A stretch of DNA of 64,000 nucleotides from Deltaproteobacteria bacterium (GTDB lineage Bacteria; Desulfobacterota; Binatia; UBA9968; JAJDTQ01), in the NCBI GenBank assembly GCA_028818775.1, contig JAPPNE010000039.1:8-64007 (forward strand), written 5' to 3'. A program made the position numbers and the translations under genes. The notes beneath the pieces are model-generated. The model ran no database searches. It saw only the letters and a list, made by a program, of their open reading frames with translations, and was not told the origin of the DNA. This document shows positions 10,042 to 23,086 of the stretch, in pieces (within the stretch, counting starts at the first letter, position 1; the number at the start of each line of letters is the position of its first letter).

Positions 10042-11208
10042 ATGGCCAAGCAGAATACGCGACAGAAACTCCTGCGCGACGGTATGAACGTGCTCCGGCG
10101 GGAAGGGCTGGAGACGGAGTCGCCGGACGTGACCGTGGTGGAAACCCTCGTGCAGCGGTTCGACGCCGAACCCGCGGTCTCCCTGGCCGTGGCCAACGTT
10201 CTCGGCCGCATCCGCGACGCCGCATCGGTGGAGGCGCTCAAGGGCCTGGAGCCGCGCGCCGGCCACAAGGAGGTCCGGCGCGAGATCCGCCGGTCGCTGT
10301 TCAAGCTGGCCCAGGCCGGACTCGGCGCGGCCGAGCCCGAGGGTTCGCGGGAGGAGGCGGCGGGCACGACCTTCAGTCTGGCCCCGGAGATCGAGGGTTA
10401 CCTGTCATCCGTTACCGGAGCCGGCTCGCGCATGGTGATCCTGGCGCGCCCCCAGCTCGGCGGGCTGATGGTGCTGCAGGCGGCCGTAAACGACCGCCGC
10501 GGACTCGAACGGCTGGGCGGCACCGTCATCCGGCGCAAGGAGCTGCGTCAGATGATGGAGGAGATGAAGGCCCAGGTGGGGGTCTCCGTCACGCCGGTGC
10601 CGTGGGAGTACGCCGATTGGCTGGTGCACGACGCCTACCAGAAAGTGAAGGACACGCCGGGCGAGGGGGTCGCCGACTATCCCGTCCTGCGCAGCCGCCT
10701 CGCCACGGCCAAGCCCGCGGAGCGCGCCCATCCGGTCTTCGATGCCATGAACGCGGAGGGCATCGAAGCGACCTCCCTGTCGGAAGTCTCCGACAAGCTC
10801 CTGGAGGAACCGGAGCTGCGCACGTGGTTCGTGGAAAAGGAGCTGATGGAGCCTTACCTCCAGCGCCTCGACGAAACCGAGCAGAGCCGCATCGTGCTCA
10901 ATCCCATGCAGAAGGAGGAGCGCTTCCGGGGCGTCCTGCGGGAAGCCGTCCAGGGCCTCTTCCTGGGCGACGAAACCGCGCCGGTGTTCGAGGCCCGCCT
11001 GGAAGACGCCGCCTACCATCTCCACGCCTCCGGCCGGGAGGACCAGGCCCGGCAGGTCCTGCGCATCGCCCTGGCCATCCGCGACCGCGACCTCGGAAGC
11101 CTGGGCGTGCCGCTGCTCGAAACCCTCGTGATGCGCAGCGTCGGCCTCTACAAGGAACAGGAGAAGCAGGAAGCGGCGGAAGAGCCGTCGCTGATCGTCA
11201 AGCCGTAG
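10042..11208 (+). CDS. Conserved hypothetical protein
   Basis: 388-aa ORF with protein-like composition and no recognisable motif. The start is uncertain. Confidence 0.45.
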   Translation: MAKQNTRQKLLRDGMNVLRREGLETESPDVTVVETLVQRFDAEPAVSLAVANVLGRIRDAASVEALKGLEPRAGHKEVRREIRRSLFKLAQAGLGAAEPEGSREEAAGTTFSLAPEIEGYLSSVTGAGSRMVILARPQLGGLMVLQAAVNDRRGLERLGGTVIRRKELRQMMEEMKAQVGVSVTPVPWEYADWLVHDAYQKVKDTPGEGVADYPVLRSRLATAKPAERAHPVFDAMNAEGIEATSLSEVSDKLLEEPELRTWFVEKELMEPYLQRLDETEQSRIVLNPMQKEERFRGVLREAVQGLFLGDETAPVFEARLEDAAYHLHASGREDQARQVLRIALAIRDRDLGSLGVPLLETLVMRSVGLYKEQEKQEAAEEPSLIVKP

Positions 11209-11261
11209 CCAATCCTTTCGGGCGCGCATCCCTGCGGGCGCGGCCGTCTGGGGGCTTCGGA

Positions 11262-11654
11262 TCAGTCCGGCAGCACGGCGATCGCCTCGATCTCCACCAA
11301 GTAGTCCGGGTCGGCCAGGCCACTGACCACCACGAGCGTGCTCGCGGGCGGATTGTCGCCGAAATACTTGAGCCGCGCCGGGTTCAGGCCGTCCCTGAAG
11401 CGCGGGTCGGTGATGTAGGTGGTGATCTTGACGATGTCGGCGAAGCTGGCTCCGGCCTCGTCGAGCACCGCTTTCATGTTCTTGAGGACCTGCTCGGTCT
11501 GGGCCGCGACGTCGCCCTTGCCGACGACGTTGTTGTCGGCGTCGACGCCGGTCTGGCCGGCGATGAAGAGCAGGCGCTTGCCTTCCGCCAGGATGCCCTG
11601 AGTGTAGCGCGGCCGGGGATCCGGAATGCTCTTGGGCGAAAGTTCTTTTCTCAT
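11262..11654 (-). CDS. RidA/YjgF family reactive-intermediate deaminase
   Basis: YjgF-like sequence (ITTYITD, AIAVLP) and a GGAGGA RBS before the ATG at 11654. Confidence 0.85.
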   Translation of the reverse strand: MRKELSPKSIPDPRPRYTQGILAEGKRLLFIAGQTGVDADNNVVGKGDVAAQTEQVLKNMKAVLDEAGASFADIVKITTYITDPRFRDGLNPARLKYFGDNPPASTLVVVSGLADPDYLVEIEAIAVLPD

Positions 11655-11744
11655 GATTTCCTCCTGCGGTTTGTGCCGAAATGGACCTTGCGTTTGCTCG
11701 GCCAAGCATAGGGAATATCCCTTGCCAATGCCAGATCAGCCGGT

Positions 11745-14228
11745 TTACCGGTACAGGTGGGCGTCGTCCACCGACGTCTCCGGCTTGCGGATCTGGGGGG
11801 TGAGGGAGGGGAGGCCGGGGCGGGCGCGGATCAGGAAGTCCACGGGGATGAAGTCCTTGAGCAGGGGGATGGGCAGGCGCACGCCGGCGTAGGGGCTGAC
11901 GGCATCGTTGCCTACCACCAACTCGTCGGCCAGGAAGGAATCGGGTGCGTCGGCGCGCACGCTGACGCCCGCGGCGGTGACGCTGCCGCGGACCGTGGGC
12001 AGGCCGTAGGCCCGCTGAGGGTCGGTTTCCTTGGTGCTCAAGATCTCGTGGTCGAGGATGGCGGAACGGTCGCGAGCGGCCCGGCCGGTCTCGCGGATGA
12101 ACTCCAGGTCGGAAGCGTCGGCGCCCAGGTCGCGGGGCTCGAACCGCATCAGGCGCGTAGGAAAGTCCTCGAGCCCGTCGGTTCCGACCGGTTCGCCGGC
12201 CCCGCGCGCGCCCAGCGCGTAGCGCTTCTCGCGCAGCAGCATCTCCAGGCCTTCGATGCGCGACCGTGCCACCGGGTAGGTGCGGGTCAACGCGCCCCAC
12301 GGGGTGTCGTAGTGCAAGAGGATCGCGTGGCGGCCCAGGAGGTTGAGCCCGGCTTCGGCCAGCTCCAGGTTGCGGACCCTGCCGTCGAACAGCGCCGGCT
12401 TGAGTCCGAGCCCCTCGGGGCCGTGGAGGCGCGGGTTGTCGGCGAGGTACTGCTTGCTGAGGCGGACGCCGCGGTTCTTTGGCGCCACCAGCCGTGCCAG
12501 CCGGCCCTTGGCCTCCTCGCCGGCGGGAGTGTCTGGGTAGTGTCCCAGCACCGCGGCGTAGAGTGCCCGTTGCCGGGTCTTGGACTCCGTCCCCTCGGCG
12601 GCGCGCAACAGCGTCCGTCCGGCCTTCTCCTCCAGTTCCCGCACCTCCTCCGCCGGCTTCTTCCCGGAAAGGCGGTAGTATTGGACCGCCTTGTGCGGAT
12701 GGCCCTGGCTCCTGTAGGCGTCGCCTAGCGCCTGGTAGATGTCCCCGGACTCCTGGGATTCCGGCCGGGCGCGGACGGCGCGGGCGGCCGCGTCGACCAC
12801 GGTCTGGTTCGACACCGGGTTGCCGCTGAGCATCTCCAATAGATTGCTGGTCACCATGAGGATGTTGGCGGCGCCCAGGGTGGCGGCTCCGGCGATTCCA
12901 TGGGTGATGATCGGCGCCGCCCCGATCATGGCGTTCTTTTCCAGGAAGTTCTCTCCCAGGAGCGCGAACCGCACCTGATCCAGGCGGTAGCGCGCGTGCT
13001 CCCGGTCCAGGGCTCCGCGAAGGTTGTATTCCGGGCTGTCGAGCAGGATGCGCGCGCGTTCGCGGGAGCGCTCGGAGGAGGCGTTGCGCCTGACGGCCGC
13101 AAGCGCGCGCTTGGCGTCCCCGTGCCGGCCGTCCATCTCCAGGGCGACGGCGGCGACGTCCCGGGCGAGAGGCTCCAGGCCTTCGCTGGCGTAGCGTTGT
13201 GCCATCTCCTCCGCCCGCTCCCGCGCCGCCGCGGCGTCCCTCAGAACCAGAGCGTGGAGCAGCGCGCGAATGTCCTTCCGTTGTTCGGCGTTAACCCCGG
13301 CAAGGTCGTCGGCGTCGGCCACGGAGTTGACTTGGCGCCGTCCCTCGTCCCGCTCCTTCCGCGCCGCTTCGATCTCCCGGAGCCGCTCCTTCACCGTTTC
13401 GGCCTCCGGCGCCACCGCGGCCGCCAGCCGGGCATGGAACTCCGCGTCGTCGATCCTGCCTTCCGACAGCGCGAGGCTCGCCTGGGTATCGTGCCCGTGG
13501 AGCCACACGACGGTCTTCTTGGCTTCGAGCGCGGCGACCGTTTGCTTTACCGCGTCTCCTTGCGGGTGGTTCGGGAAACGCGCGAGAAAACGCTTGTAAA
13601 GGACCAGGGCCTTGCGCTCGCCGGCGGGCATGCGCGGCTCGCGGCCCCGGAACAACTCGGCGAAGGCGGTGTCCACGGCGGCGGTGAGATACGAGCCCGA
13701 CACCCATCCGATCAGATCCACGGAGCCGAGCATGCGGTTCAGCAGTTCGTTCCAGCGGCCGATGTCGCTCTCGGCCACGAGCGCGTCCGCCTGTTCCAGC
13801 TCGTCCTCGGCCAGGCGGGCGCGGAGGAACCGGCGCCGCGCGTCGGTGGGAGCGGTCTCCAGGCTTTCTTGCAACGCTTTTCGGTAGGCGTCGCGGTCGG
13901 TGAGGGCTGCATGGTGCAGGTCCTGCAGGCCGTGGCTCAACCCGCTTGCCCGCTCGCCGCGGGCGTCGAGTTCGCGGTCCCTCTCCTCGACATGGCGCAC
14001 GTGGTCGCGCAGCCTCGACCCGTGTCCGCCCAAGGTGTCGCGCAGCGCCCGGCGCGCGCGCTGCTCGATTTCGTCGGGGAAGTAGCGCGCGTCGGTGACC
14101 GCGGGCGCGAAGGGATCGAAGCCGTGCAGCGGGTCCAGCATCCGCGGGTGGGCATCGCCGTGGACCTGAGCGGCGGCAACGACCGGCAGTGCCAGGAGCA
14201 GGCAGAGCAGCCCGGCGGCAGTCCTCAT
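11745..14228 (-). CDS. Large secreted helical protein (827 aa) with signal peptide, unknown function
   Basis: Signal peptide MRTAAGLLCLLLALPVVAAAQ. Highly charged Arg/Glu/Ala-rich helical-repeat body. Start ATG overlaps the stop of the upstream lipoprotein gene (ATGA). Confidence 0.6.
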   Translation of the reverse strand: MRTAAGLLCLLLALPVVAAAQVHGDAHPRMLDPLHGFDPFAPAVTDARYFPDEIEQRARRALRDTLGGHGSRLRDHVRHVEERDRELDARGERASGLSHGLQDLHHAALTDRDAYRKALQESLETAPTDARRRFLRARLAEDELEQADALVAESDIGRWNELLNRMLGSVDLIGWVSGSYLTAAVDTAFAELFRGREPRMPAGERKALVLYKRFLARFPNHPQGDAVKQTVAALEAKKTVVWLHGHDTQASLALSEGRIDDAEFHARLAAAVAPEAETVKERLREIEAARKERDEGRRQVNSVADADDLAGVNAEQRKDIRALLHALVLRDAAAARERAEEMAQRYASEGLEPLARDVAAVALEMDGRHGDAKRALAAVRRNASSERSRERARILLDSPEYNLRGALDREHARYRLDQVRFALLGENFLEKNAMIGAAPIITHGIAGAATLGAANILMVTSNLLEMLSGNPVSNQTVVDAAARAVRARPESQESGDIYQALGDAYRSQGHPHKAVQYYRLSGKKPAEEVRELEEKAGRTLLRAAEGTESKTRQRALYAAVLGHYPDTPAGEEAKGRLARLVAPKNRGVRLSKQYLADNPRLHGPEGLGLKPALFDGRVRNLELAEAGLNLLGRHAILLHYDTPWGALTRTYPVARSRIEGLEMLLREKRYALGARGAGEPVGTDGLEDFPTRLMRFEPRDLGADASDLEFIRETGRAARDRSAILDHEILSTKETDPQRAYGLPTVRGSVTAAGVSVRADAPDSFLADELVVGNDAVSPYAGVRLPIPLLKDFIPVDFLIRARPGLPSLTPQIRKPETSVDDAHLYR

Positions 14229-15166
14229 CGGCTGCGCCTCCGCATCTGTTCCATCATGCCTTTCAGGCCCTCGATCTTTCCGTTGGCTTCGAGTTTCTCC
14301 GGCGCGCCGTCCTGCTGTGCCACCTCGGTGTAGAGCTTCATAGCCGATTGGGCGAAGCCCTCGAAGGTCTTGATGTCGAAGGCGAGGCCCTCCGGCTCGT
14401 TCAACAGCGCATACTCCCGCGCCAAGCCGGTATAGTAGTCGCCGAAGTCCAGCACGTGGCGGTGATACTTCTTGCTTTCCTGGTGCCGCGACAGGAGCTC
14501 GCTGTAGGCCACGGCGACGAGCTCGTCGCCGTCGTTCAGGCCGCGGCGGTTGAGCTCCACGAAGGCGACCTTGGCGCGGTCGACGCGCTCCGCCTCCACC
14601 CGGGCCAGGGACTCCAAGGGCGTCCCCGCGTGACGCTCGATCAAAGCGTTCCATGCGCGCACGCGCTCGTCCAGCGCCTTGATGTAGTCGGACGCATCGT
14701 CGGCCGGCAAGGCGGTGGCGGCGATGCGCTGGAACGTCTCCAGGGCGTCGATTTGGCGGCGCGCCTGTTCCGCCAGTTCACCCCCGGCGCGCGCCACGCC
14801 GCGGTAGTGGCGGAGCGCGCGCCGGTAGTCCCTCAGGCGCTCGTAGGCGGTGGCGCGGGTGAACCCCACGATGTCGCGGTACCCGTTCCCGTGCTTGCGC
14901 TCGAAGTCCTCCAGCCGCAGCAGGGTGGCCTTGAGGATGCTGGTGCCGGTGACGTCCTTGGGCACGTCGAACCGGTACACGTCCTCGCGTCCGAGCCGTT
15001 GGAACTCGCTGACGATCTCCACCAGGTTCGCCGGCTGCGCGTAACGCGGCTCGTAACGCGGCTCCGGTTCGGGCGAGGGCGCGCCCGTGCGCGCGCACCC
15101 GGCCGCGAGCAGCAGCGCCAGCGCAAGCCCGGCGGCCGCCGTCCGTGTCGGGTCCGGCAAACTCAT
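14225..15166 (-). CDS. Lipoprotein (lipobox LLAAGC), unknown function
   Basis: MSLPDPTRTAAAGLALALLLAAGCARTG signal/lipobox. Only the last 313 codons of the 701-aa track ORF are protein-like. Confidence 0.6.
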   Translation of the reverse strand: MSLPDPTRTAAAGLALALLLAAGCARTGAPSPEPEPRYEPRYAQPANLVEIVSEFQRLGREDVYRFDVPKDVTGTSILKATLLRLEDFERKHGNGYRDIVGFTRATAYERLRDYRRALRHYRGVARAGGELAEQARRQIDALETFQRIAATALPADDASDYIKALDERVRAWNALIERHAGTPLESLARVEAERVDRAKVAFVELNRRGLNDGDELVAVAYSELLSRHQESKKYHRHVLDFGDYYTGLAREYALLNEPEGLAFDIKTFEGFAQSAMKLYTEVAQQDGAPEKLEANGKIEGLKGMMEQMRRRSR

Positions 15167-15189
15167 GCGGCAACTTGCGCGATACGACG

Positions 15190-15546
15190 CTAGGGTCTTG
15201 TGGTGATGAGCGAATAGCACAGCACCAGCTCGCCTTCTTCGGCCGCGAAGTCGTGGGGCACGCCCGCGGGAATGTGGCACAGCATGCCGGCCTGGAGCGG
15301 CGTCACCTCGCCGCCGGCCCGCAGCCGCCCCCGCCCCCGCAGCACGTGGCACACCACGTCCTTGTCGTCGTGGACGATCTGCCGCGGGTCCGCCGCCGTG
15401 GTGGCCGCGAACGAGACCAGTCCCACGTTGAAGCCGTCGCCTTCGATGCAGCCCGTGTGGCGGATCTCCGCGTTGACGGCCGCAAGCTCGGCAAGGGCCT
15501 CGTCGATACGCACGACCTTGGTGCTGCGGGCGGAAGGGTTGGACAC
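15190..15546 (-). CDS. Cupin-domain protein
   Basis: 118 aa with a cupin core (HxH...H-like: CHVLRGRG...HIPAGVPH). GTG start with an ACGGAG RBS. Confidence 0.55.
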   Translation of the reverse strand: MSNPSARSTKVVRIDEALAELAAVNAEIRHTGCIEGDGFNVGLVSFAATTAADPRQIVHDDKDVVCHVLRGRGRLRAGGEVTPLQAGMLCHIPAGVPHDFAAEEGELVLCYSLITTRP

Positions 15547-15558
15547 GTCGGACTCCGT

Positions 15559-16497
15559 CTACCCGGCCTCCGTGATGTGGCGCAGGATGGCGTCCATGGC
15601 GCGTTCCGCGTCCGTGTCCGGCACCCGGCAGGACCCCACCACCCGGTGGCCGCCGCCGCCGTAGTGGCTGAGAAGGTCGCCGACGTTGACCGTGGAGGTG
15701 GTGTTGAAGATGTTGTAGCCCACCGAGATGGCGGTGGTGCCGGCGCGCTGCGGATCGCGCGAGACCTTCATGGAGATGTTTCCCTCGGGAAACAGCGTGT
15801 AGAGCAGGAAGCGGTTGGCGTCGGTGAGGTCCTCGGCGCCGCGCAGGTCGAGATAGATGACGTTGCCGCGAAGCTCGGCGTGCTCCATGAGTTGCCGCCG
15901 CAACCGTTCCTGCAGGCCGAGGACCCGCTCGCAACGCCGGTGGACCTCGGGGTCGTCGAGCACCTGTTCCAAAGTGCGGTCCCGGATCAGGGCGATCAGC
16001 CGGCGCCAGTAGGGCTCCTCGTCGCCGTCCTTGCCGTAGATGGTCATGGAGACGAGCACGTACCCGGCGGGGCGCAGCACGTCCTCGCGCGTGAGATACC
16101 CGCCGTCGATCTTGTCCGTGTCTTCGAGCAGCGCCGTGAACCGGTCGGTGCGCATCAGTTCGAGGCCCGGGCGGTAGCGCGTCTCCGATGCGCTCGGCAC
16201 CTCCGAGTAGTACTCGAACACCACGCGCGCGGCGCTCGGCGCGAGCCGGAAGGCGCCGCGGCCCGGCACCACCGGACGGTCGAAGCCCGCGGCCCCGTTG
16301 GTGAAGTGATGGTCGAACCACAGGGTGCACGCCGGGTGGTAGGGCAGGTTGGCGATGACGTCGCCCGCGCGGACGTCGACGGCGCCGTCCTGCATGAACT
16401 TGGGCTCGACGAAGAGGTAGGAGTCGATGTCCTCGACCGCGGTGATGAGCGCGCCGCAGACGATGCCGTCGAAATCGGGACGGGTCACGAGCCTCAT
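15559..16497 (-). CDS. DHH-family phosphoesterase-like protein
   Basis: N-terminal RPDFDGIVCGALI and downstream DHH-like His/Asp motifs (FDHHF). Start overlaps the ald stop (ATGA). Confidence 0.45.
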   Translation of the reverse strand: MRLVTRPDFDGIVCGALITAVEDIDSYLFVEPKFMQDGAVDVRAGDVIANLPYHPACTLWFDHHFTNGAAGFDRPVVPGRGAFRLAPSAARVVFEYYSEVPSASETRYRPGLELMRTDRFTALLEDTDKIDGGYLTREDVLRPAGYVLVSMTIYGKDGDEEPYWRRLIALIRDRTLEQVLDDPEVHRRCERVLGLQERLRRQLMEHAELRGNVIYLDLRGAEDLTDANRFLLYTLFPEGNISMKVSRDPQRAGTTAISVGYNIFNTTSTVNVGDLLSHYGGGGHRVVGSCRVPDTDAERAMDAILRHITEAG

Positions 16498-17612
16498 GCG
16501 CTGAGCACCTCGGCCACCGGGGTCAGCGGCAGGTTCAGGGCGCCGGCGACGCCGCCGTGGGTCACCCGCCCGTCATGGACGTTGAGGCCCCGGGCCAGCG
16601 CGGCGCTTTCCCGCATCGCCCGCTGAAGCCCCTTGTCGGCGATGGCCAGGCCGTAGGACAGGGTGGCGTTGGTCAGCGCATAGGTGGAGGTGTGGGGCAC
16701 CAGCGCCGGCATGTTGGTGACGCAGTAGTGCACCACCCTCTCCTCGACGTAAATGGGGTCCCGGTGGGTCGTGGGCCGCGAGGTCTCGGCGAACCCTCCC
16801 TGGTCGATGGACACGTCCACGATGGCCGCGCCGCGCTTCATCTGCCGCACCCGGTCGCGCGGCAGGAGCATGGGCGTGCGGTCCCCGGTGATGAGCACCG
16901 AGCCGATGAGCAGGTCGGCGTCCACGATCTCCTCCTCCAGGTTGGCGCGGTTGGACATGAGGGTGGTGAGCCGCCCGCCCAGGATGTCGTGGATGTAGCG
17001 CAACCGCGCCGAATTCACGTCCAGCACGCTCACGTCGGCGCCCATGCCCGCGGCCACCTGGCACGCGGAAGCTCCCACGGTGCCGGCTCCGAGCACCACC
17101 ACCTTGCCCGGCCGCACCCCCGAGGCGCCGCCCAGGAGCACGCCGCGTCCGCCGTGCTCGGCCTGAAGGGCCCATGCCCCCACCTGGAGCGACAGGCGCC
17201 CGGCGATCTCGCTCATGGGCGTCAGCAAGGGCAGCGAGCCGTCCTCCAGCGCGATGGTCTCGTAGCCCAGGGCGGTGACGCCCCGGTCGCACAGGGCCCG
17301 GGTCAAATCGGGCTGCGCCGCCAGGTGGAGGTAGGTGAACAGCACCAGTCCCGGTCTCAGGGAGGCGAACTCCTCGCTCAGGGGCTCCTTGACCTTCATC
17401 ACGAGGTCGGACCGTTCCCACACTTCGCGCGCCCGCTCCACCACGGTGGCGCCGGTGGCGGTGTAGGCGCGGTTGGCGATGTGGCTGCCCCTGCCTGCGT
17501 TGCGTTCCACCACCACCTGGTGGCCGTGGGCGATGAAGGCCGCCGCCCCCGCGGGTGTCAGCGCCACTCGATTCTCTTCGGTTTTCAACTCCTTGGGGAC
17601 GCCGATGACCAT
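16494..17612 (-). CDS. ald: Alanine dehydrogenase
   Basis: MVIGVPKELKTEENRVALTPAG N-terminus and Rossmann GAGTVG; the full-length AlaDH fold is recognisable. Confidence 0.9.
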   Translation of the reverse strand: MVIGVPKELKTEENRVALTPAGAAAFIAHGHQVVVERNAGRGSHIANRAYTATGATVVERAREVWERSDLVMKVKEPLSEEFASLRPGLVLFTYLHLAAQPDLTRALCDRGVTALGYETIALEDGSLPLLTPMSEIAGRLSLQVGAWALQAEHGGRGVLLGGASGVRPGKVVVLGAGTVGASACQVAAGMGADVSVLDVNSARLRYIHDILGGRLTTLMSNRANLEEEIVDADLLIGSVLITGDRTPMLLPRDRVRQMKRGAAIVDVSIDQGGFAETSRPTTHRDPIYVEERVVHYCVTNMPALVPHTSTYALTNATLSYGLAIADKGLQRAMRESAALARGLNVHDGRVTHGGVAGALNLPLTPVAEVLSA

Positions 17613-17756
17613 GATTTCATTGGTACGTGAGCACCCTTGGGGTGTCAAGACGGGGGCTCCGGCCGCGGTTTCGCGTCAATTCATTGACCTCGTTTCAAGG
17701 GCGTGTTACCGGTTTCTTGATCCTTTGGTTGTAACTTGATCGAGGCGGCGGGACCC

Positions 17757-18602
17757 ATGATCATCGACGGCAAGGCGGTGGCGCAGCAGGTGCGCGACGA
17801 GGTGCGGGTAGCCGCCCAGCGGCTCAGGAACGACCACGGCGTCGTACCCGGTCTGGGCGTGGTGCTGGTCGGAGACGATCCGGCGTCGCGGGTGTACGTG
17901 CGCAACAAGGAGAAGGCGTGTGCGGAGGTGGGCATCCGCTCGGTGGAGCATCTGCTGCCGGCGTCGGTGTCGGAGCACGAGTTGCTGGACCTGATCGCCA
18001 GTCTCAACGAGGATCCGGCCATCCACGGCATCCTCGTGCAACTGCCGCTGCCGGAACAGATCGCCAGCGCGCGCATTCTCGAGGCCGTGTCGCCGGCCAA
18101 GGACGTGGACGGGTTTCACCCGGTGAACCAGGGATTGCTCCTTTCCGGCGGCGAGGGCTTCAGGCCGTGCACCCCGCTGGGGATCATGCGCATGCTGGAC
18201 TCGGTCGGTTGCCCGCTCAAGGGCAGGAACGCGGTGGTGGTGGGGCGCAGCAACATCGTCGGCAAGCCCGTGGCGCTGATGCTGCTGGAGCGGCACGCCA
18301 CGGTCACGCTCTGTCATTCGCGCACCGCGGATCTCGCGGGCGAAGTGGGCCGGGCGGACGTGGTGGTGGCGGCCGTGGGCAAGACCCACGCCATCCGCGG
18401 CGAGTGGATCAAACCCGGCGCCGTGGTCATCGACGTGGGCATCAACCGGTTGCCTGACGGGAAGCTCGCGGGCGACGTGGAGTTCGACGCCGCGCGGGAG
18501 CGCGCATCGTGGATCTCGCCCGTGCCCGGAGGCGTCGGCCCCATGACCATCTGCATGCTCTTGTCCAACACGCTGCTGTCGGCGCAGCGTTCCGTCGCGT
18601 AG
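17757..18602 (+). CDS. folD: Bifunctional methylene-THF dehydrogenase/methenyl-THF cyclohydrolase
   Basis: [13 protein letters not shown]...YVRNK...[15 protein letters not shown] are typical FolD. Confidence 0.9.
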
Positions 18603-18649
18603 GCGGTACCGCCGGCCGGCTGGTGTGCCGTACACGGGGGTCTCCGACC

Positions 18650-19738
18650 ATGGTGGAAGAGGCGCAGGGCAAACAACTCCGCAGGACGCCGTTGCATGAG
18701 CGGCACAAGGCGCTGGGCGCGCGCATGGTGGGGTTCGCCGGATGGGAGATGCCGGTCCAGTACCGGGGCATCCAGGCCGAGCACGCGGCAGTGCGCTCCG
18801 GGGCCGGGCTCTTCGACGTGAGCCACATGGGAGAGTTGGAGGTGACGGGCGCCGGCGCTTCGCGGTTCTGCCAGCGGGTCACCACCAACGACGTCACGCG
18901 CCTGCAGCCGTCACAGGCTCAGTACACGCTGTTGCTGAACGAGCGCGCGGGCGTGATCGACGACCTGGTGATCTTCCGTCTGGAGGAGGCACGTTACCTG
19001 CTGTGCGTGAACGCCTCCCGCGCGGACGTCGATTTCGAGTGGCTGGCGGATCACGCGGACGACGACGTGACCGTGGAAAACGTCAGCGACGCCTATGCGT
19101 TGCTGGCGCTTCAGGGGCCCGCCGCCGCGGGAATCCTGCAACCGTTGACCGCGGCGGAGCTGTCGACGCTCAAGCCGTTCCAATTCGTGAATGGGGACGT
19201 GAGCGGAATCCCCTGCATGATTTCACGCACCGGGTACACCGGGGAGGACGGGTTCGAGCTCTATTGCGCTGCGGGAGACGGCGCCGCGCTTTGGGACACC
19301 CTCACGGCGGCGGGCGACGTGGAGCCGGCCGGCCTGGGCGCGCGCGACACCCTCCGCCTGGAGAAGGGCTACTCGCTCTACGGCCATGAACTCGACGAGA
19401 CCACGACGCCGTTGGAGGCCCGGCTCGGCTGGGTCACCAAGCTCGACAAGGGGCCGTTCATCGGCTCCGAGGTGTTGGCGCGGAAGGAGCCGCTTGTGCG
19501 GCGCTTGGCCGGGCTGATGATGGAAGAGGCGGGCATTGCCCGCCAAGGCTACCCGATATGGCGCGAAGGGCGCGAAGTGGGGCGCATCACCAGCGGCACT
19601 CTGTCGCCGACCCTGGGCAAGGCCATCGCGCTGGGTTACGTCGCGCCGGAGTCCGCGGCGGCGGACACCGAGGTGGAGGTGGAAATCCGCCGCAGGCGGG
19701 TGCGCGCCCGCATCGTCCGCGTGCCGTTCGTCCGGTAG
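18650..19738 (+). CDS. gcvT: Glycine cleavage system T protein (aminomethyltransferase)
   Basis: [27 protein letters not shown]-terminus and GcvT fold throughout. Confidence 0.9.
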
Positions 19739-19767
19739 CGAACCGGCCGGCCGCGAAGGAGGAATCG

Positions 19768-20178
19768 ATGGAGTACCCCAAGGGTCTGCGGTATTCGAGG
19801 GAGCACGAGTGGGTGCTGGTGGAGGACGCGGACGGCGCCGTCATCGGCATATCCGATTTCGCCCAGAACGAACTGGGAGACGTGGTGTACGTGGAGGCCC
19901 CGGCGATGGGGGAGACCATCAGCAAGGACGATCCGTTCGGCGCGGTGGAGTCCGTGAAAGCGGTGTCGGACCTCTACGCGCCGGTGAGCGGCACCGTGGT
20001 CGAGGTCAACGATGCGCTGACGGACACCCCGGAGCTTGTCAACGAGGACCCCTACGGCGAGGGGTGGATCATCAAGGTGACCATGTCGGACGTCAGCGAG
20101 CTCGACGACCTCTTGACCCATGAGGAGTACAAGGAGCACTGCGAAGGGCAGCCGGATGACGACGACGGCGGCGCTTGA
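19768..20178 (+). CDS. gcvH: Glycine cleavage system H protein
   Basis: Lipoyl-lysine motif ESVKAVSD and EHEW motif, with an AGGAGGA RBS. Confidence 0.9.
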
Positions 20179-20209
20179 CGCAGCGTACTAGAACATAGAG
20201 GAGCCTGCC

Positions 20210-23086
<2,877 letters not shown>

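Follow-up and report, generated by a model that had tools for sequence, protein, structure and literature searches.

The window analysed here is a stretch of 64,000 nucleotides (nt) of contig JAPPNE010000039.1, from an assembly (GCA_028818775.1) that is labelled Deltaproteobacteria bacterium and belongs to the uncultured class Binatia; its G+C content is ~68%. At positions 11745-17612 the listing of open reading frames and direct reading of the sequence give five co-oriented minus-strand genes, which encode, in the order of that strand, an alanine dehydrogenase (ald), a DHH phosphodiesterase, a cupin, a lipoprotein of 313 amino acids (aa) and an exported protein of 827 aa, here called the large protein (Table 1). 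We judge it rather probable that this cluster is two modules lying side by side, probably in one transcript: a cytoplasmic trio of enzyme and cupin genes, and an envelope pair whose products would form a lipid-anchored periplasmic scaffold complex. A composite operon of this kind is the simplest account of the five genes. An earlier note, made from the sequence of this DNA, had suggested that the same cluster may be an envelope-associated module linked to alanine/ammonium metabolism. The layout that it gave is exact, both ATGA stop/start overlaps included, and the packing is as tight and operon-like as it said (the four junctions are -4, 12, 23 and -4 nt); the single module is not supported by comparison with other genomes, where the pair stands independently, the two halves are often split, and ald can be lost (below).

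Evidence comes from outside the Binatia, where the lipoprotein/large-protein pair recurs as follows: in three loci of Myxococcota metagenome-assembled genomes (L087, L088 and L089), in three taxonomically unassigned loci (L090, L101 and L003), and in a further unassigned locus (L100) whose protein-cluster members are labelled Nitrospinota; a pair-like arrangement is also present on a 306-kb JGI contig that carries P0178. At these loci a gene of ~284-321 aa without a Pfam match lies immediately upstream of the large gene, overlapping it or at most 25 nt away. This upstream gene is a homologue of the window lipoprotein in L087, L089, L090 and L100 (hhalign E=1e-32 to 1e-58), and both members of the L003 pair are found by tblastn (34% identity for the lipoprotein, 28% for the large protein); in L101 and on the P0178 contig the partner, of 297 and 321 aa, respectively, was judged by its position and size. 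The partner has a lipobox in L089, L003 and L100 and a plain signal peptide in L090. No ald, DHH or cupin gene is near the pair in any non-Binatia locus examined, and what does lie there differs from one context to the next: leuA-like, SDR and ECF sigma genes with glcDEF on the other side; obg/proB/proA on one side and DegP on the other; a divergent amino-acid ABC transporter gene with fused substrate-binding protein and permease (L090 and L101); and FlgN and GAF-GGDEF genes on one side and TonB on the other, the GAF-GGDEF diguanylate cyclase gene lying directly upstream of the pair on the P0178 contig. Because the pair recurs in other lineages beside unrelated genes, and never beside ald, DHH and cupin, it appears to be self-contained, and the simplest account is that it would be an older envelope module that happens to lie downstream of the trio in Binatia. 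The ald/DHH/cupin neighbourhood is, judged from these comparisons, probably a Binatia-specific arrangement outside the core function of the pair. The large-protein family is small (an exhaustive phmmer search gave only 237 clusters among 1.84 billion representatives), and a metagenome scan with a narrower alignment gave only nine loci. One large-protein homologue carries the JGI label 'TolA-binding protein'.

Inside the Binatia the gene order is widely kept. A scan of one genome per species yielded 80 loci, nearly all of them labelled Binatia or, in older usage, 'Deltaproteobacteria', and these were searched by tblastn with the window proteins. The close relatives are all Candidatus Binatia, many of them with long-read, chromosome-level assemblies. 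The large gene follows the lipoprotein gene immediately in 77 of the 77 loci that have room for it. Fifty-three loci have at least 4.5 kb of upstream sequence; ald, DHH and cupin are all present there in 47, DHH and cupin only in four, and none of the three in two. The 4-nt ald/DHH overlap is found in 53 of 56 Binatia loci, and the cupin gene invariably follows the DHH gene. Gene order, a point on which the earlier note was open to refutation, is thus conserved for the pair and largely so for the trio upstream of it. The junction between the two halves is the looser one: an insert of 1-4.4 kb separates cupin and lipoprotein in 22 of the 65 Binatia loci with a cupin match, and these 22 loci come from soil and groundwater. 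The insert is mostly a single opposite-strand gene of ~400 aa, GH53-like in five of seven scanned (PF07745, E 1e-8 to 4e-11; Table 1), and where an opposite-strand gene intervenes the two halves cannot share a transcript. In L043 the insert is instead a same-strand gene resembling a CO-dehydrogenase flavoprotein. A Binatota genomics paper makes no mention of alanine dehydrogenase, pili, outer membrane or glycine cleavage system.

A promoter-like element upstream of ald was found by aligning the regions upstream of this gene across Binatia; a generic sigma-70 promoter scan of 11-18 kb gave no promoter and missed it. The pattern TTGAC[AT]-N16-18-TAnnn[AT] matches the minus strand of 11-18.2 kb only once, at the ald site, and the looser TTGACn-N16-18-TAnnnn fits 38 of 51 Binatia regions upstream of ald, mostly ending 6-8 nt before the start. 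Because the -10 hexamer of the window ends only 7 nt before the ATG, its position implies an ald transcript that would be leaderless or nearly so, and the class-wide pattern suggests that leaderless ald mRNAs are general in Binatia. No terminator-like site was seen on the minus strand of 11-18 kb (those on the plus strand occur at background frequency). With one strand, short or overlapping junctions, one promoter-like site and no internal terminator, the five genes, perhaps six with a RidA-family gene downstream, are probably one transcript in this genome. The spacer between ald and the divergent folD (~17650-17735) contains two more elements kept in the close clade, CGGT(T)AACACGC and GAGGTCAATGAA, the second of which enlarges in the window to the palindrome TCAATGAATTGA; these could serve as an operator or as the promoter of folD. 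No Rfam element, glycine riboswitch or leader included, was found in 9-21 kb even at E<=0.1.

The proteins of the trio belong to well-described families. The ald product is predicted to be an NAD-dependent L-alanine dehydrogenase from its full-length match to the TIGR00518 alaDH equivalog (491.1 bits against a cutoff of 391.85, residues 1-370) and its AlaDh_PNT_N and AlaDh_PNT_C domains in a Pfam scan. The DHH protein had been called a DHH-like phosphoesterase in the earlier note; the family assignment stands, and the protein is less anonymous than this name allows, since it has a specific homologue in Vibrio cholerae PggH (PDB 7d62; E=2.3e-43, 35% identity, query residues 2-309 against chain residues 21-321). 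PggH (VCA0593) is a pGpG-specific DHH/DHHA1 phosphodiesterase, and its substrate is a breakdown product of cyclic di-GMP (c-di-GMP) (PMC8861645). Nine of the ten functional residues named in that paper are kept: D13, D15, N55, D67, H68, H69 and D121 of PggH correspond to D8, D10, N50, D62, H63, H64 and D131, the GGGH histidine H282 corresponds to H284, and of the two guanine-recognising arginines R228 is kept (as R229) whereas R146 is replaced by lysine (K156). The two proteins are homologous over their full length, share all Mn-ligand positions and the DHH and GGGH motifs, and differ at R146. The Binatia protein is, by these matches, a putative PggH-type Mn-dependent DHH/DHHA1 phosphodiesterase that most likely hydrolyses a dinucleotide or another short 5'-phosphorylated nucleotide. 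The settings differ as well: the Binatia gene is translationally coupled to ald, whereas no ald or cupin gene lies within 4 kb of Vibrio pggH (tblastn, one locus). PggH was described as conserved within Vibrio only (PMC8861645). The cupin is a single-domain Cupin_2 protein (PF07883; E=1.3e-10, 41.2 bits against a gathering threshold of 27.2) with weak PDB matches to the bicupin dioxygenase YxaG and to TTHA0104. The simplest account of ald, the PggH-like gene and the cupin gene is that they would be a Binatia-specific unit in which the ald/DHH coupling is strongly conserved.

The lipoprotein has a signal peptide that ends in the lipobox LLAAGC, as the earlier note had read it, and the cysteine of this box (Cys24) is invariant in 34 homologues, as expected of a bacterial lipoprotein. 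The window protein matches nothing in Pfam or NCBIfam, and a Pfam scan of the 34 homologues gave only matches to tetratricopeptide-repeat (TPR) type families. Its AlphaFold2 model (pLDDT 85.7, pTM 0.72) is all-alpha, with eleven helices following the signal helix.

The large protein is rich in Ala, Arg and Glu, as had been said (A 15.1%, L 12.3%, R 11.6%, E 8.0%), and begins with a signal-like N-terminus whose positions are near-invariant in the Binatia alignment; its homologues also bear signal peptides, or in some cases a lipobox of their own. Many relatives are 690-830 aa long and align over residues 50-640. Its AlphaFold2 model (pLDDT 60, pTM 0.26) has helical repeats over residues ~50-670 and a C-terminal region of low confidence, and a Foldseek search with it gave generic solenoids at TM ~0.1, with LbcA among the neighbours. 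The window protein itself gave sub-threshold TPR-type matches and a marginal TMV_coat match in Pfam/NCBIfam and nothing else, and 40 homologues gave TPR-type Pfam matches only. The TPR-like helical character proposed earlier holds for both envelope proteins: homologues match TPR Pfam families (E down to 1e-10), the family profiles match consensus TPR structures in the PDB (E=2e-10 and 5e-7), and the models are helical, while the window proteins stay below the Pfam thresholds. The proposal that neither belongs to a described family also holds, in that Pfam, NCBIfam and the PDB give nothing beyond generic TPRs. In the PDB profile search, which used the full-length families and an alignment of the C-terminal domain, matches other than designed or consensus TPRs and CpoB (E=1e-4) were at chance level (E>0.1).

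Three parts of the large protein stand out from the repeats. A Gly/Ala-rich hydrophobic block (residues 433-467) has a Kyte-Doolittle value of ~1.3-1.4, below that of a clear transmembrane segment, and very low AlphaFold2 confidence; we did not adopt a transmembrane reading, given this hydropathy (~1.4), the equivalent segment of distant relatives being, by inspection, less hydrophobic. The C-terminal region, 150-260 aa long in the family and with no Pfam or PDB match, contains the motif GL.L.P.LLDG...NGE...G, and the residues D615, N620, E622 and G627 that it covers are invariant in Binatia; their counterparts are likewise invariant in 40 distant relatives and across a C-terminal alignment of 20 sequences. 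The extreme C-terminus, of the form ...P....D..LY[RKE], recurs as a terminal [DE]xxL[YF][RKEQ] in most full-length relatives across lineages.

How might such a pair work? There is about an even chance, in our estimation, that it acts by the following generic mechanism. Lipoprotein and large protein, made in a fixed ratio through translational coupling, would associate with one another; the large solenoid would be held at a periplasm-facing membrane by the lipid anchor; and the resulting TPR complex would offer other envelope proteins or polymers a scaffold or adaptor, with the conserved C-terminal domain and its DGxxxNxE motif as the functional end. Several considerations weigh against the composite operon and its scaffold. 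'Scaffold' is a generic deduction from TPR content, and the invariant D/N/E motif could instead mark an enzymatic or ligand-binding site. The fold of the large protein cannot be taken as established from so poor a model, above all in its last 155 residues and in the hydrophobic block. One clade of large-protein relatives (L095, L096, L097, L099 and L102), which includes a protein cluster labelled Sumerlaeota, has no adjacent partner gene, and tblastn with the lipoprotein gave nothing below E=0.18 near these relatives, so the large protein can apparently work without a neighbouring lipoprotein gene. Co-transcription, for its part, we infer from the arrangement of the genes. Finally, the linkage of DHH and cupin to the pair in distant Binatia exceeds background synteny: in 19 loci with full flanks, whose lipoprotein is ~50% identical, DHH and cupin are within 8 kb in 17, whereas folD is kept in three and the enoyl-CoA hydratase gene (ech) in one, which is a hint of genuine coupling inside the Binatia.

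The last point bears on the first of three rival explanations, none of which we favour. In it the five genes are one functional system, enzymes and envelope pair taking part in one process, for instance a remodelling of the envelope that is tied to nucleotide or alanine/ammonium metabolism. The tight packing behind one promoter-like site, the trio upstream of the pair in 47 of 53 Binatia species, and a linkage that outlasts the other flanks all agree with it. We consider it unlikely, given that every non-Binatia lineage examined has the pair without the trio, that in a third of the loci with a cupin match (22 of 65) the cluster is divided by 1 kb or more of inserted DNA, in most of them an opposite-strand gene, that four species lack ald and two have the pair alone, and that the Vibrio PggH locus has neither ald nor cupin nearby.

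A second explanation makes the pair an accessory of a surface-polymer machine, that is, a scaffold or pilotin serving polysaccharide export or a secretin system like that of type IV pili, to which the PggH-like enzyme may supply a c-di-GMP link. Some secretin pilotins, PilF and Tgl among them, are TPR lipoproteins. The partner-less large genes lie, in two lineages whose large proteins are 28% identical, divergent from a cluster (L095 3-6717, L102 1-4526 and others) that encodes a PilM-like fusion of 640-650 aa, a protein of 160-190 aa and a large TPR-rich protein; this cluster might represent a pilus or secretion locus of an unusual kind, the TPR protein of L095 alone (>1350 aa) having a Secretin_N domain. 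Glycoside hydrolase genes occur beside the family in two contexts (the GH53-like inserts of Binatia, and a GH172 gene that lies between in L102), the GAF-GGDEF gene of the P0178 contig is directly upstream of the pair, and PggH degrades pGpG (PMC8861645). Each of these associations, however, is limited to one lineage, and GGDEF genes occur so commonly that chance could place one nearby. A Pfam scan of the genes at 10042-19738 found no pil, secretin or glycosyltransferase gene beside the pair in the window, nor is there one beside it in the Myxococcota or Nitrospinota-labelled loci; NCBIfam gives no match, PilW-type families included, and a porin-sized C-terminal domain is absent. This role is, in our view, improbable. 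As specific candidates of this kind we rejected a type IV pilus pilotin (PilF/PilW/Tgl), for which NCBIfam gave no match and the pilM/secretin linkage is found only at partner-less relatives of another clade, and an exopolysaccharide (EPS) TPR-porin (PelB, BcsC, PgaA), given a C-terminal region of 150-260 aa without a Pfam or PDB match and no glycosyltransferase beside the pair among the annotated genes. EPS-export scaffolds (AlgK and the N-terminal parts of PelB, BcsC and PgaA) do resemble the pair in their long periplasmic TPR arrays, in having a lipoprotein partner in some cases, and in the glycoside hydrolase genes near some of its relatives; they differ in that the pair has no C-terminal beta-barrel porin, no synthase or glycosyltransferase neighbours and no Pfam match.

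A bolder reading is that the pair is part of an unrecognised envelope apparatus, present in Binatota, Myxococcota, the Nitrospinota-labelled lineage and the Sumerlaeota relatives, which in Binatia has become connected, under one leaderless promoter, to ald and to an enzyme of pGpG/c-di-GMP turnover (the PggH-like DHH protein). We regard this as decidedly unlikely; if true, the assembly of the envelope or of surface polymers would be regulated together with the decay of a second messenger and with nitrogen status.

The weakest explanation, which we think very unlikely, is that the lipoprotein acts in outer-membrane biogenesis as a divergent factor of BamD type or similar, with the large protein as its lineage-specific partner: the best Foldseek match of the lipoprotein model is 9n2d_F, a chain of the Flavobacterium johnsoniae BAM complex (E=3.3e-4), the list includes chain D of the E. 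coli BAM-complex entries 5ayw_D, 8bvq_D and 8qp5_D (which we take to be BamD), and some distant large-protein homologues have weak YfiO (PF13525) matches, but the TM-scores are only 0.24-0.36 (0.30-0.36 for the top BAM chains), the unrelated TPR proteins LGN, EMC2 and LapB score comparably, and none of the 34 lipoprotein family members matches PF13525 at E<=0.1. Membership of BamD/YfiO was rejected on the missing PF13525 and NCBIfam matches. An adaptor-protease pair of the NlpI-Prc or LbcA-CtpA kind was likewise set aside, S41 peptidase and PDZ domains being absent from the large protein and its relatives in a Pfam scan, as was identity with LpoA, for which there was no family profile match.

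Among known systems, the proposed scaffold complex resembles the TPR lipoprotein adaptors (BamD, NlpI, LbcA, LpoA and PilF/Tgl), with which it shares a lipid-anchored, all-helical protein of ~300 aa and an adjacent gene for a larger exported partner. It differs from them in that the partner is a second TPR solenoid, its C-terminal domain of a new kind, rather than a barrel, protease, penicillin-binding protein or secretin, and in that no profile membership accompanies a structural similarity that is generic (TM ~0.3). Residues 480-578 of the large protein also resemble CpoB/YbgF (PDB 6g5s, E=1.1e-4; TIGR02795, E=0.027); here the difference is one of extent, the match reaching 15 bits against a family cutoff of 90 and covering ~100 of 827 residues, with no tol-pal genes nearby.

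The count of five genes given in the earlier note is right for the genes it placed, and a sixth on the same strand, of the RidA family, follows closely. It is adjacent in 20 of 20 close Binatia loci and within 8 kb in 13 of the 19 distant ones, and is a possible sixth cistron. Beyond it lies a plus-strand gene (10042-11208) for a 388-aa protein with only a weak HEAT_2 match, which is conserved downstream of RidA in many Binatia loci (42-90% identity). The window has no tRNA gene (ARAGORN).

Table 1. Features of the cluster, its flanks and the GH53-like inserts of other Binatia loci. Positions refer to the window unless a locus is named.
Feature	Position	Strand	Remarks
folD-gcvT-gcvH-gcvP	17736-23086	plus	divergent from ald, upstream of the cluster
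Promoter-like element	17620-17648	minus	TTGACA-N17-TACCAA; -10 hexamer ends 7 nt before ald ATG
ald	17612-16494	minus	372 aa
DHH gene	16497-15559	minus	312 aa; start overlaps ald stop as ATGA
DHH motif	16306-16314	minus	in the PggH-like DHH gene
GGGGH motif	15646-15660	minus	in the PggH-like DHH gene
Cupin gene	15546-15190	minus	118 aa; GTG start; 12-nt gap after DHH gene
Lipoprotein gene	15166-14225	minus	313 aa; 23-nt gap after cupin gene
Lipobox Cys24 codon	15095-15097	minus	LLAAGC
Large-protein gene	14228-11745	minus	827 aa; start overlaps lipoprotein stop as ATGA; GGAGG 8 nt upstream
Signal peptide of large protein	14166-14228	minus	MRTAAGLLCLLLALPVVAAAQ; Kyte-Doolittle maximum 2.27, residues 4-22
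Gly/Ala-rich hydrophobic block	12828-12932	minus	residues 433-467, AMIGAAPIITHGIAGAATLGAANILMVTSNLLEML; among the most conserved stretches in Binatia
Motif DG-x3-N-x-E-x4-G	12348-12386	minus	residues 615-627, DGRVRNLELAEAG
Extreme C-terminus	11745-11777	minus	...D-x-x-L-Y-R and stop codon
RidA-family gene	11654-11262	minus	130 aa; 90 nt downstream of large gene; Ribonuc_L-PSP, 97 bits
GH53-like inserted gene	L037 6596-7828		opposite strand to the cluster
GH53-like inserted gene	L079 6590-7804		opposite strand to the cluster
GH53-like inserted gene	L084 3590-4783		opposite strand to the cluster
GH53-like inserted gene	L046 5557-6714		opposite strand to the cluster
GH53-like inserted gene	L053 3046-4401		opposite strand to the cluster

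Much in this cluster is of kinds already known: TPR lipoproteins with exported partners have been described, and there is nothing unusual in alanine dehydrogenase, DHH phosphodiesterases or cupins. New findings are a conserved and probably leaderless ald promoter architecture in Binatia and the extension of PggH homologues beyond Vibrio. The cluster is also a caution for annotation, in that tight packing and class-wide synteny can join unrelated modules, and guilt by association with ald would be misleading here. Two unmodelled protein families are also now defined; their genes travel together, translationally coupled, in Myxococcota and several further lineages besides Binatota, and through this pair one could learn in a concrete case how the cell envelopes of uncultured diderm lineages depart from the E. 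coli model.

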